Source: a virus (taxonomy: Duplodnaviria > Heunggongvirae > Uroviricota > Caudoviricetes). From it: a stretch of DNA of 64,000 bases. Both the position numbers and the translations under genes were made by a program. Below the pieces are notes generated by a model, which saw nothing but the letters and a program-made list of their open reading frames with translations, did not search any database and was not told the origin of the DNA. Positions 21,389 to 23,518 of this stretch are shown one piece after another; within the stretch, counting starts at the first letter, position 1, and the number at the start of each line of letters is the position of its first letter. The stretch is from IMG/VR virus record IMGVR_UViG_2609460125_000009; one strand, written 5' to 3'.

Positions 21389-22707
21389 AAAAGTTGATCG
21401 CACTTAAGCATAAGCTGGACGAAATGAAAGCTATGGGAACCAATGCAAAAAAAGAGGCATTGGCCAACATGGATGACTTCGAGCAAAGCATGGTTTCATT
21501 GATGCTCAACCCTTTCATCCGTTTTGGGGTAAAGAAATACAAAGTGGCAGAGCCGCTTAGTGAGTCCGTCCCAAGTGACGAAAAAGCCATTGATATACTG
21601 AATAAGCTGGCCTCTCGCGAGCTGACGGGGAACGCAGCAATAGCAGCTGTTGAGTCTATCGTGGCGTCAATGTGCGCCGATGGGCAGGACGTGTTCCGTC
21701 GTTTCCTCTTAAAAGACCCGAAAGCAGGTGTTGGGATTAGCCTATGCAACAAGGTTTTTGAAAATCCCATTCCGAAATTCGAGGTGCAGCTGGCGTCACC
21801 GTATAAAGAAAAAGGCGACAAATACCCCTTCAAGCCAAATCCTAAAGCCAAATGGCCGATGATTGGCAGCCTTAAGCTCGATGGTTTGCGAGTAATTTGC
21901 GAGGTTATTGTTGACGAGGAAGAGGTTAACTTCCTTTCTCGTACTGGTAATCCAATCACGTCTCTCGATCACCTAAAGCCAGCCATGCTCGAATTAGGCA
22001 AACTTTCAGGCCACAAACACATCTTCTTCGATGGTGAAGGAACAGCCGGTTCATTTAACCAGTCCGTATCTGCATTGCGCAAAAAGAACGTGCAGGCAAT
22101 TGGCGCTATTTATCATGTTTTCGACTTCTTCCTACCGGAATGGCGGGCACAGGCTAAATCCAAAGAGTATGCAAAGACAGGTATGAAGCTGAAAGAGCGC
22201 CTGGCTATTCTCGTGGCGTTGTTCAAAAACGATCGCAGTGAAGACTACGCGCAAGACATTCACCTACATCCGTTCTACATCATCCATAGCCACGAAGACT
22301 TCATCGAACGCTTCATGAAACGCCTGGACGATAACGAAGAAGGGGAGATGGGCAAAGATCCGAACTCTGTTTACGAGTTTAAACGTACCCGCAGCTGGTG
22401 GAAGTTAAAAGACGAAGATTCAGAAGATGGTGAAATTATCGACTTTGAGCCGGGCGACCCGGACTCTGGTTTTGCCAACACACTTGGAAAAATTGTTATT
22501 CGTCTTGAAAACGGCGTCATCGTTCGTGCGAGCGGCATTAAGCATAAATATCTGGACGAGATCTGGAACAACAAAGAGAAGTACCGTGGTCGTATTGTCG
22601 AGGTTCATTGTCACGAGAAAACACCGGACGGCAGCTTACGCCACCCACGACTGAAATGGCCGCGTTGCTTACGCGATACAGAAGATCGAATCGGAGATAA
22701 AGAATGA
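21385..22707 (+). CDS. ATP-dependent DNA ligase
   Basis: Adenylation motif I KxDG (SLKLDGLR); downstream motifs consistent with the ligase nucleotidyltransferase fold (FDGEG, WWKLK). Confidence 0.8.
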   Translation: MKKLIALKHKLDEMKAMGTNAKKEALANMDDFEQSMVSLMLNPFIRFGVKKYKVAEPLSESVPSDEKAIDILNKLASRELTGNAAIAAVESIVASMCADGQDVFRRFLLKDPKAGVGISLCNKVFENPIPKFEVQLASPYKEKGDKYPFKPNPKAKWPMIGSLKLDGLRVICEVIVDEEEVNFLSRTGNPITSLDHLKPAMLELGKLSGHKHIFFDGEGTAGSFNQSVSALRKKNVQAIGAIYHVFDFFLPEWRAQAKSKEYAKTGMKLKERLAILVALFKNDRSEDYAQDIHLHPFYIIHSHEDFIERFMKRLDDNEEGEMGKDPNSVYEFKRTRSWWKLKDEDSEDGEIIDFEPGDPDSGFANTLGKIVIRLENGVIVRASGIKHKYLDEIWNNKEKYRGRIVEVHCHEKTPDGSLRHPRLKWPRCLRDTEDRIGDKE

Positions 22708-22883
22708 TGCTCGGCTGGATGATTGCATTTTTAGCGGTTGGTTTTTTAATCGGTATTGTGGTGATGTCCAGTTGCATCAATGACTACATTAAAAGCGGTG
22801 TTATAGAACGACGCGGTCGTATTTATCGCATTGTAGAAATAACCCGCACAGTGAAGGAGATTAAGGATGATCGTATTAAGTAA
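22704..22883 (+). CDS. small membrane protein (59 aa), paralogous to the ORF at 23079
   Basis: ATG overlaps the ligase stop; one transmembrane helix; not in the supplied ORF track because it is under 60 aa. Confidence 0.35.
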   Translation: MMLGWMIAFLAVGFLIGIVVMSSCINDYIKSGVIERRGRIYRIVEITRTVKEIKDDRIK

Positions 22884-23082
22884 GCGGGAGAAGGAAACGC
22901 TTCATGAAATCAGTAAGTGGCCGGAGTTCCCTGAGTACTGGAAGCCTAAAACGCGGGCTAAGTTAGAGCGGTTAGGGTTGGTTGCAAACGTTTCTGAAAC
23001 GTGGTGTTCGGCCAACTACCAGTTAACTGATAAAGGGAAAGTATTGCTACAGCAATTAGTAGAATCAGGAGCGTTAAAATGA
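22867..23082 (+). CDS. hypothetical small protein
   Basis: 71-aa ORF overlapping both neighbours. Confidence 0.35.
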   Translation: MIVLSKREKETLHEISKWPEFPEYWKPKTRAKLERLGLVANVSETWCSANYQLTDKGKVLLQQLVESGALK

Positions 23083-23231
23083 TTCCATACATCTCATTAG
23101 CTTTTATGGGTGGCTTCCTTATCGGCTTCGGCATCTGTCGTGATTTAATTAAGCAGGAACTTAAAACCAAAACACTGTGCATCGGAAAGCGTGTGTATCG
23201 GGTAGTTCATGAAACAAAGGTTAGAAAATGA
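23079..23231 (+). CDS. small membrane protein (50 aa), paralogous to the ORF at 22704
   Basis: Shares GFLIG...RIYRIVE / RVYRVVHE with the 59-aa protein; start overlaps the previous stop (ATGA). Confidence 0.35.
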   Translation: MIPYISLAFMGGFLIGFGICRDLIKQELKTKTLCIGKRVYRVVHETKVRK

Positions 23232-23518
23232 GCAATTTAACTTCTTGGGACTGGTGGTTGGCCACCTATTTCTTAGCGGCCGGAGTCGCATTCGCCTTTT
23301 ACGTAGGTCAGTTAGTCGTAAAACTGCTGCTGATTAAATTTGCCAGTCATAAACGTATCGATGATGGTCTGTGGCGTCTTGGCACCCTGGTGGAAACTCG
23401 CTACGGGCAACTTAAGGAGAACGAAACCATTACTATCCAAGCGAAACGATTCACTGCCACCATCACAAGAACACCTAGTCGTAGAGTGGCCTTGATCAAA
23501 AAAGTCACAACCGAATAA
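23228..23518 (+). CDS. membrane protein
   Basis: 96 aa with an N-terminal transmembrane helix; start overlaps the previous stop. Confidence 0.4.
   Translation: MSNLTSWDWWLATYFLAAGVAFAFYVGQLVVKLLLIKFASHKRIDDGLWRLGTLVETRYGQLKENETITIQAKRFTATITRTPSRRVALIKKVTTE

Follow-up and report, generated by a model that had tools for sequence, protein, structure and literature searches.

The 64,000-nucleotide stretch of DNA analyzed here (hereafter the window; IMG/VR virus record IMGVR_UViG_2609460125_000009, Caudoviricetes) carries a cluster of four small open reading frames (ORFs), ORF1 to ORF4, directly behind a gene for an ATP-dependent DNA ligase. Across the region 21385-24200, the window shares 98.4% identity with Escherichia phage Cyrano (pLF82), 79% with Salmonella phage SSU5, and 75% with Klebsiella phage pJN2-26. 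Judged by these identities, the window is an SSU5-like phage-plasmid. The genes of the cluster and the ligase gene are as follows.

21385-22707, forward strand: ATP-dependent DNA ligase gene, labeled DNA ligase in the annotations of Cyrano, SSU5, and pJN2-26
22704-22883, forward strand: ORF1, 59 amino acids, PHROG 4381; predicted N-terminal transmembrane (TM) segment and basic C-terminal part with an invariant RRGRIYRI
22867-23082, forward strand: ORF2, 71 amino acids, PHROG 4054; predicted soluble winged-helix protein, CYRAN_37 of Cyrano ("putative transcriptional regulator")
23079-23231, forward strand: ORF3, 50 amino acids, PHROG 6302; predicted N-terminal TM segment and basic C-terminal part with GKRVYRVVHET
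23228-23518, forward strand: ORF4, 96 amino acids, PHROG 4507; predicted long N-terminal TM/juxtamembrane helix, beta-hairpin, and basic tail

The stop codon of the ligase gene (TGA, 22705-22707) overlaps the start of ORF1, which makes the four small genes the end of the ligase/replication operon. ATGA overlaps occur at three junctions (ligase/ORF1, ORF2/ORF3, and ORF3/ORF4), the ORF1/ORF2 overlap is 17 nt, and a Shine-Dalgarno-like GGAG, AGGAG, or AAGG lies 7 to 10 nt 5' of each start. The chain of four ORFs behind the ligase that had been described in the original prediction, made from the sequence of the window, is borne out in both its coordinates and its junctions. A sigma-70 promoter scan showed no internal promoter in the cluster, and nothing resembling a promoter or terminator lies between the ligase and ORF4. 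All three annotated relatives (Cyrano, SSU5, and pJN2-26) have the ligase, the same small ORFs, a noncoding stretch of ~750 nt, and a tRNA-Asn gene, and the same gene order and overlaps recur in these three and in ~150 metagenomic or viral contigs. The four genes are SSU5_045-048 in SSU5, where ORF1 is annotated as SSU5_045, and ORF2 to ORF4 are CYRAN_37-39 in Cyrano. ORF1 is intact in Cyrano (OV696614, 37430-37590, equivalent to window positions 22704-22883), yet it is unannotated there. SSU5 ORF4 bears the product name "C-type natriuretic protein," which is supported by none of the present searches.

How far these short frames are conserved was determined in two sets of loci. An ORF2 profile fetched 82 loci, but the universality of ORF2 cannot be claimed from loci that were found through it; to avoid this circularity, the census was redone with 80 more loci anchored on the ligase C-terminus. 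Over 85 loci reached through ORF2 and the 80 reached through the ligase, the frames, their order, and their overlaps are maintained down to ~60% amino acid identity, and at ~75% nucleotide identity the frames and overlaps are still conserved, with indels that stay in frame. Pooled pairwise ratios of nonsynonymous to synonymous substitution rates (dN/dS) are 0.24, 0.15, 0.23, and 0.22 for ORF1 to ORF4, respectively, and third codon positions hold 51 to 58% of the substitutions in the four ORFs. Each protein also matches its PHROG family at full length, with protein and profile aligned end to end (E = 2.1e-38, 1.1e-45, 8e-37, and 8.5e-59 for ORF1 to ORF4); against Pfam, NCBIfam, and PADLOC, none of the four had a match above threshold. 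Even a distant element (L087) has the series ligase-ORF1-ORF2-ORF3-ORF4 with the same overlaps, although its TM segments have diverged. Conservation of the reading frames in related genomes was one of the two points on which the original prediction was to stand or fall, and it came out in favor of the genes: because the frames are conserved, dN/dS is 0.15 to 0.24, and the PHROG families are matched, all four ORFs are, by these comparative signatures, real, conserved genes. In searches of 5.8 billion proteins (ORF1 to ORF3) and 1.84 billion representatives (ORF4), their relatives are confined to SSU5-like elements of Enterobacteriaceae, ~100 to 112 kb in size, from Escherichia, Salmonella, Klebsiella, Citrobacter, Enterobacter, Cronobacter, Raoultella, Kluyvera, and Buttiauxella; a GTDB genome scan with ORF2 gave two Kluyvera loci only.

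Three of the four products are predicted to reside in the membrane. Kyte-Doolittle hydropathy over 17 residues reaches maxima of 2.65 in ORF1 (residues 6-22), 1.88 in ORF3 (4-20), and 2.15 in ORF4 (20-36), compared with 0.43 in ORF2, and TM segments are predicted at residues ~3-23 of ORF1 and ~4-20 of ORF3. Around the TM segments of ORF1, ORF3, and ORF4, there are no lysines or arginines before the segment and three to four within the 15 residues after it. According to the positive-inside rule, the basic flank of a TM segment is cytoplasmic. Because the basic residues occur only after the segment, ORF1, ORF3, and ORF4 are predicted to be single-pass inner-membrane proteins with the N-terminus outside, the C-terminus inside (Nout-Cin), and basic cytoplasmic tails. 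Each of the three has the single hydrophobic segment of ~17 to 25 residues and the positive-inside bias of a bitopic protein, and ORF2 has not; the long helix modeled for ORF4 (residues 3-59) fits this architecture. The cluster had been described as encoding four small membrane proteins; this description stands for ORF1, ORF3, and ORF4 but not for ORF2, given its hydropathy and its soluble winged-helix model. We also considered ORF1 as a lipoprotein (...VMSSC) and rejected this, as the Cys is unconserved.

The AlphaFold2 (AF2) model of ORF2 has a predicted local distance difference test (pLDDT) score of 84.4 and a predicted TM-score (pTM) of 0.66, with helices at residues 6-17, 27-35, and 55-67 and strands at 39-41 and 51-53, that is, in the order helix, helix, beta-hairpin, helix. 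In Foldseek, the model matches the winged helix-turn-helix (wHTH) cores of MarR, CouR, HosA, and RovA (query TM-score [TMq], 0.72 to 0.77; probability, ~1.0), as well as many small uncharacterized phage wHTH proteins and TubR (TM-score, 0.71). Profile searches gave weak matches over residues 31-66, to HTH_45, to Csa3-wHTH (PADLOC, E = 0.0015), and to SSO5209. The best Pfam match, HTH_45, scored 12.5 bits against a cutoff of 25.5, and a PDB sequence-profile search gave noise only. The stretch LERLGLV...YQLTDKG resembles a recognition-helix/wing signature, although the profile hits are far below curated cutoffs. According to the model, then, ORF2 is a soluble stand-alone winged-helix protein with a MarR-type wHTH core. 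It does not belong to the MarR family proper: there is no Pfam MarR match, the protein has only 71 amino acids, and it shares the wHTH core without the MarR dimerization helices. The modeled domain would work like a wHTH domain, with putative DNA binding.

ORF1 and ORF3, the 59- and 50-amino-acid products, had been proposed to derive from a duplication. The two align by BLASTP over 45 ungapped residues (33% identity, E = 8e-6), and their families align by hhalign over 46 ungapped columns (probability 68%, E = 4.7e-5). The sequences were then split into TM and soluble parts, since TM composition inflates scores; in shuffle tests, the C-terminal soluble part alone gave p = 0.026 and the TM part alone gave p = 0.058. 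When the soluble parts of the two families were compared register by register, only an offset of +1 scored positive (25.1; all other offsets, -3 to -40), and at this offset the TM segments of ORF1 and ORF3 are aligned as well. However, the ORF1 family search did not retrieve the ORF3 family, nor did the ORF3 search retrieve the ORF1 family. On the BLASTP, hhalign, and register evidence, common descent of ORF1 and ORF3 is probable but not proven. ORF4 was tried as a third paralog and rejected, with no BLASTP alignment to the others, hhalign probabilities of 0.2 to 1.7%, and shuffle p > 0.7.

The motifs that had been put forward for the pair need to be redefined. GFLIG is indeed present in both ORF1 and ORF3, but in the lineage of the window only, and is thus no family signature: SSU5-type and Klebsiella-type relatives have GIVIG or GFVIG in ORF1 and GVALG in ORF3 instead. 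GFLIG and R(I/V)YR(I/V)V do occur at the same spacing in the two proteins. Recent gene conversion was rejected as the source of GFLIG, as 5 of the 15 nucleotides differ between the two stretches and other lineages lack GFLIG. The C-terminal signature (R/K)(I/V)YR(I/V)VxE applies to ORF3 (VHE) but not to ORF1 (VEI); the pattern that is in register in both is R-[IV]-Y-R-[IV]-V-x-x-T. Across relatives, the families read RRGR(I/V)YRI(I/V)(D/E)(I/V)T in ORF1 and G(K/N)R(V/L/I)YRV(V/I)HET in ORF3, and the conserved motif common to the two is G(R/K)R(I/V/L)YR(I/V)(I/V)xxT.

At the start of ORF3, conservation extends to the DNA itself. The first 15 nucleotides of the gene belong to a set of motif copies in the window, listed here.

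23079-23093, forward strand: invariant 15-mer ATGATTCCATACATC, codons 1-5 of ORF3
24090-24105, forward strand: motif copy AATGATTCCATACATC, the second isolated one, ~200 nt 5' of tRNA-Asn
25886-25918, both arms: 13-7-13 palindrome AATGATTCCATAC-CTACTAT-GTATGGAATCATT, with the integrase gene (26017-27120) ~100 nt downstream
31934-31949, reverse strand: third isolated motif copy, antisense within dnaE, the gene for DNA polymerase III alpha (31684-35202), in its 5' part

The 13-mer AATGATTCCATAC at 23078-23090, which consists of the preceding A and the start of the 15-mer, spans the ORF3 start. It occurs exactly five times in the window, at 23078 (+), 24090 (+), 25886 (+)/25906 (-), and 31937 (-), compared with 0.13 occurrences expected with one mismatch allowed; the three single copies share the longer form ATGATTCCATACATC. 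Essentially all haplotypes share the 15-mer at the ORF3 start without change, while both of its flanks vary, and it is the longest invariant run within the coding cluster. Diversity at third positions, summed over ORF3 codons 2-5, is 0.09, compared with 0.52 in the next-lowest four-codon window and a gene mean of 0.30 per codon. Elsewhere in ORF3, the third positions of invariant residues (L7, G36, R38, R41, V42, H44, and E45) vary freely. The frozen synonymous sites in codons 2-5 therefore point to a nucleotide-level constraint at the ORF3 start, one that would dictate the N-terminus MIPYI. The other copies are noncoding, reading for example MIPYIQ-stop in SSU5 and MIPYIP-stop in the dnaE antisense copy, and SSU5 and Klebsiella relatives have the copy at 24090 in a conserved position. 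From this pattern of conservation, we conclude that the overlap of the motif with the ORF3 start is genuine and serves a function at the DNA level.

Three further observations concern the copies. The antisense copy in dnaE is the same in Cyrano and SSU5 despite differing flanking codons; the dnaE and ORF3 copies bracket a variable region of ~8.9 kb in inverted orientation; and the distance from ORF3 to the palindrome ranges from 2.2 to 3.8 kb among relatives.

What might the motif be? The original prediction had called it a recombinase half-site. Core sites of the Cre/loxP type have arms of 13 bp and a spacer of 6 to 8 bp, and the palindrome at 25886-25918, known here from sequence, resembles them, with perfect 13-bp inverted arms, an asymmetric 7-bp spacer, and a tyrosine integrase gene beside it. 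In pJN2-26, the same arms enclose a different spacer, and the integrase is 82% identical. It is tempting to regard the ORF3-start copy as a true half-site of the neighboring integrase, serving regulation or recombination with the palindrome, as its sequence is identical to both palindrome arms ~100 nt from the integrase gene and those arms are conserved in pJN2-26 in classic tyrosine-recombinase geometry. However, the copy at ORF3 is a single arm, without the second arm needed for strand exchange, and it persists where there is no integrase: SSU5 has none at the locus and no homolog among the tblastn hits, yet in it, and in many other SSU5-type loci without integrase or palindrome, the three isolated copies are still in place. 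The coincidence that had been noted is thus real and conserved, but because SSU5 keeps its isolated copies without an integrase, the label of half-site is unproven, and we consider a half-site at ORF3 unlikely.

In a second view, ORF2 or another factor binds the ATGATTCCATACATC copies and so couples ORF3 and ORF4, a downstream RNA resembling transfer-messenger RNA (tmRNA; see below), the tRNAs, and the integrase region, and the conserved ORF3 N-terminus is a by-product of overprinting on an operator. The four frozen synonymous sites in the longest conserved run of the cluster would fit this, as would the same-orientation copy upstream of the tRNA genes, the location of the palindrome between the divergent CYRAN_43 and integrase genes in Cyrano, the persistence of isolated copies in the integrase-less SSU5, and the DNA-binding fold modeled for ORF2. 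However, binding of ORF2 to DNA or to the motif is purely hypothetical; there are five copies only, clustered in 9 kb, and neither the remaining ~55 kb of the window nor Cyrano 62-108 kb has any; in L087, the ORF3 start has drifted to TTGATCCCATATC and a perfect motif copy instead adjoins a tRNA gene; and ORF3 and ORF4 are under purifying selection, hence no mere by-products. Such a regulatory node seems to us improbable. We also find improbable a related version, in which ATGATTCCATACATC, which overlaps the ORF2 stop and the ORF3 start, is a local operator set read by a conserved phage factor, possibly the ORF2 protein encoded on top of it; if true, the cluster would be part of an unrecognized control node linking the replication operon, the tmRNA-like RNA, the tRNA genes, and the integrase module.

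The genes themselves are not always kept. In the ligase-anchored census, all four are present in 58 of 80 loci and ORF1 is precisely absent in 13, while a few loci have a truncated ORF1, a frameshifted ORF2, or an interrupted ORF3/ORF4. The precise loss of ORF1 has a candidate explanation in a repeat that combines the Shine-Dalgarno sequence with the ATGA junction.

22693-22708, forward strand: junction repeat GGAGATAAAGAATGAT, at the ligase/ORF1 boundary
22856-22871, forward strand: second copy of the junction repeat, GGAGATTAAGGATGAT, at the ORF1/ORF2 boundary

Deletion of ORF1 between the 16-nt repeats GGAGATAAAGAATGAT and GGAGATTAAGGATGAT sets the ATG of ORF2 exactly at the former ATG of ORF1, and the natural variants lacking ORF1 are, to judge from these junctions, the product of recombination between the two repeats. 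The frameshift in ORF2, the deletion of the ORF1 TM segment, and the interruption of ORF3/ORF4 each occur in single lineages. The four genes are individually dispensable, given that 13 of the 80 loci lack ORF1 and that one Klebsiella sublineage has a disrupted ORF3/ORF4. In that sublineage, at five Klebsiella-type loci (L071, L073, L076, L084, and L085), foreign DNA of ~0.5 kb has taken the place of the ORF3 3' part and the ORF4 5' part, but these loci still have the motif at the ORF3 start, its second copy, and the tmRNA-like gene. ORF1 is altered in this sublineage as well, by an in-frame deletion of its TM segment or by a GTG start.

Transcription offers some indication of when the cluster is used. 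In a Cyrano lysogen of E. coli LF82 grown in LB, expression in fragments per kilobase per million mapped reads (FPKM) is 5.9 for the ligase, 6.4 for CYRAN_37, 5.0 for CYRAN_38, and 7.6 for CYRAN_39 (PMC9928086, supplement), compared with 96 for the putative repressor and 7084 for CYRAN_43 in the same lysogen (PMC9928086). CYRAN_37-39 are not among the lysogeny-expressed "morons" listed by the authors of that study (PMC9928086). The genes are thus silent, at local background, in the Cyrano lysogen, and with expression at the level of the ligase and no promoter of their own, they belong to the repressed replication/lytic program. Being dispensable, and repressed in the plasmid-prophage state, they most likely act in lytic development.

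Taken together, we lean toward reading the cluster as accessory genes of the replication operon that supply membrane-tethered basic peptides in the lytic phase, which modulate or anchor a partner at the inner face of the membrane; we hold this to be somewhat likely. In this model, the four ORFs would sit as accessory genes at the 3' end of a replication operon (helicase, primase, and ligase), be expressed with it after induction, with lytic development as the most likely stage, and be translated by termination-reinitiation coupling through the ATGA and 17-nt overlaps. ORF1, ORF3, and ORF4 would each place a tiny uncharged N-terminus outside, one TM helix in the membrane, and a short, strongly basic part in the cytoplasm; these basic parts would end in a beta-hairpin-like R-phi-Y-R-phi-phi element and would dock on a partner at the inner membrane, on its cytoplasmic side, and modulate or anchor it. 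Candidate partners are the host envelope or division machinery, or replicating phage DNA. ORF1 and ORF3 would stem from one duplication, ORF2 would act as a 71-amino-acid cytoplasmic stand-alone winged-helix protein, and the first 15 nt of ORF3 would be a DNA-level motif that imposes the invariant N-terminus MIPYI. The proteins would be neither lysogenic exclusion factors nor toxins.

For such a tether, the nearest functional analogy known to us is a partial one. The early membrane protein p16.7 of phi29, of ~130 amino acids with a coiled coil and a dimeric DNA-binding domain, tethers replicating phage DNA. The small membrane proteins would resemble it in having an N-terminal TM anchor, a short basic cytoplasmic domain, and replication genes as neighbors, and in being inessential for viability; ORF1 and ORF3, by comparison, would hold only ~30 cytoplasmic residues.

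Several points count against the preferred model. Translation, membrane insertion, and topology of the small proteins are themselves predictions. The AF2 model of ORF4 shows a helix at residues 3-59, a hairpin at 67-80, and a disordered tail at low confidence (pLDDT 64), too low for a fold search, and a PDB sequence search with the ORF4 profile gave noise only. None of the matched PHROG families (4381, 4054, 6302, and 4507) carries a functional annotation, and searches with ORF1, ORF2, and ORF3 against 5.8 billion proteins, and an exhaustive phmmer search with ORF4 against 1.84 billion representatives, yielded no relative with an informative name or Pfam domain; the phmmer match of ORF4 to P0234 was discarded as a spurious repeat protein. 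The ORF1 and ORF3 families are narrow (effective number of sequences [Neff], ~1.6), which leaves the paralogy statistics modest, and the similarity of the two is in part generic TM composition. Any function of ORF1 must be conditional, given its frequent loss, and the lysogen RNA sequencing covers one strain and few conditions.

Two other roles have to be weighed against the model of lytic-phase peptides, both in the spirit of the exclusion and membrane depolarization that had originally been suggested. In the first, the genes would be expressed from the prophage and serve superinfection exclusion or lysogenic conversion, with resident membrane proteins blocking the entry of incoming phage DNA. 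The proteins are small, single-pass, accessory, and variably present, as is typical of exclusion genes. However, the FPKM of 5 to 8 in the one lysogen examined tracks that of the silent ligase, when lysogeny-expressed genes range from 96 to 7084, and this silence argues against exclusion from the prophage. The cluster also has no promoter of its own and is translationally coupled to a replication enzyme, and ORF1, ORF3, and ORF4 have no PADLOC hits. We find this role very unlikely.

In the second, the products would damage membranes, as type I toxins of the Hok/Gef kind or as holin/antiholin lysis timers. Hok/Gef proteins have ~50 amino acids, a TM segment at the N-terminus, and a polar tail, and so resemble the 50- and 59-amino-acid products, and the TM segment of ORF4 weakly matches a holin family (phrog_2359, E = 0.019), though over residues 8-34 only, that is, 27 TM residues. 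Membership in the Hok or holin families is nevertheless absent. There is no match to Hok_Gef (Pfam PF01848) at E ≤ 10, the cysteines are replaced in relatives, and no antisense RNA locus or mok-type arrangement accompanies these operon-embedded, coupled genes. Obligatory cotranslation with a ligase would be odd for a toxin, and the basic C-termini are predicted to be cytoplasmic, whereas the tail of Hok is periplasmic. As for lysis, Cyrano has its cassette (holin, endolysin, and Rz/Rz1; CYRAN_22-25) ~10 kb upstream. Membrane damage seems to us very unlikely, and the suggested roles in exclusion or depolarization are not supported. Finally, that some or all of the ORFs are chance open frames in a noncoding operon tail, as their very short length, the missing annotation of ORF1 in Cyrano, and merely hypothetical annotations might suggest, appears effectively refuted already by the dN/dS values, the dominance of third-position substitutions, the conserved frames and overlaps, and the in-frame indels.

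Beyond ORF4, the neighborhood holds features in their own right. Directly after ORF4, at window positions 23533-24040, lies an unannotated structured RNA gene, highly conserved and more so than the four coding genes. A promoter-like GTATTTACTTAC...TGTATAAGAT is conserved in it, compensatory changes support several stems (12 covarying pairs), and it contains a frame like a tmRNA tag at 23611-23646, GCA AAC GAA GAA GTC TAT CTG GCA GTA GCC TAA TAA (ANEEVYLAVA and two stops). In other lineages the tag-like frame reads ANDNQYLAVA, ANEDTYLAVA, or ANDDVVLMAA, with synonymous changes and with the upstream start codon unconserved. ARAGORN found no tmRNA in the region, Rfam tmRNA matches were subthreshold and limited to the tag region, the canonical tRNA-like domain was not found, and RefSeq has no annotation for the region on 246 E. 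coli plasmids. The tmRNA-like RNA looks more interesting than the four-gene cluster. Within it, 33 nt (23897-23929) match at 100% in an annotated clustered regularly interspaced short palindromic repeat (CRISPR) array of an E. coli chromosome (NZ_LR778147.1, 1705873-1705905); on this identity, the match reads as a natural spacer against this phage-plasmid family.

Farther downstream, the segment from tRNA-Asn to a cobT-like gene (24295-28063) is a variable insert, and SSU5 has nothing there (12526-12762 of locus L089). In the window, the insert comprises three extra tRNAs, two small ORFs (one a glutaredoxin), the palindrome, the integrase gene, a putative repressor, and a small ORF; in Cyrano, it additionally holds CYRAN_43, the most expressed gene of the lysogen. 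Between the palindrome and the start codon of the integrase gene (26017), at 25971-25990, there is a perfect LexA-box-like site, TACTGTTTACTTATACAGTA. Klebsiella phage pJN2-26 has it in the form TACTGTATATAAACACAGTA (~1457-1476 of locus L090), and this conservation suggests SOS control of the integrase.

SSU5-like phage-plasmids are common and spread resistance genes, and sequence adjacent to the cluster is present in 246 of 5,426 complete E. coli genomes. To our knowledge, almost nothing is known of the accessory early genes of these elements. The observation from which this work started was largely correct, with two corrections: ORF2 is predicted to be soluble, and the motif shared by ORF1 and ORF3 is defined differently. 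The four genes are ordinary uncharacterized small accessory phage proteins, already catalogued in PHROGs and GenBank, and the frozen 15-mer is the sole unusual aspect of the cluster. With the reality, architecture, duplicates, dispensability, and lysogenic silence of the four ORFs described as above, interest in them narrows to lytic-phase phenotypes, and the frozen 15-mer on the ORF3 start offers a concrete cis-element.

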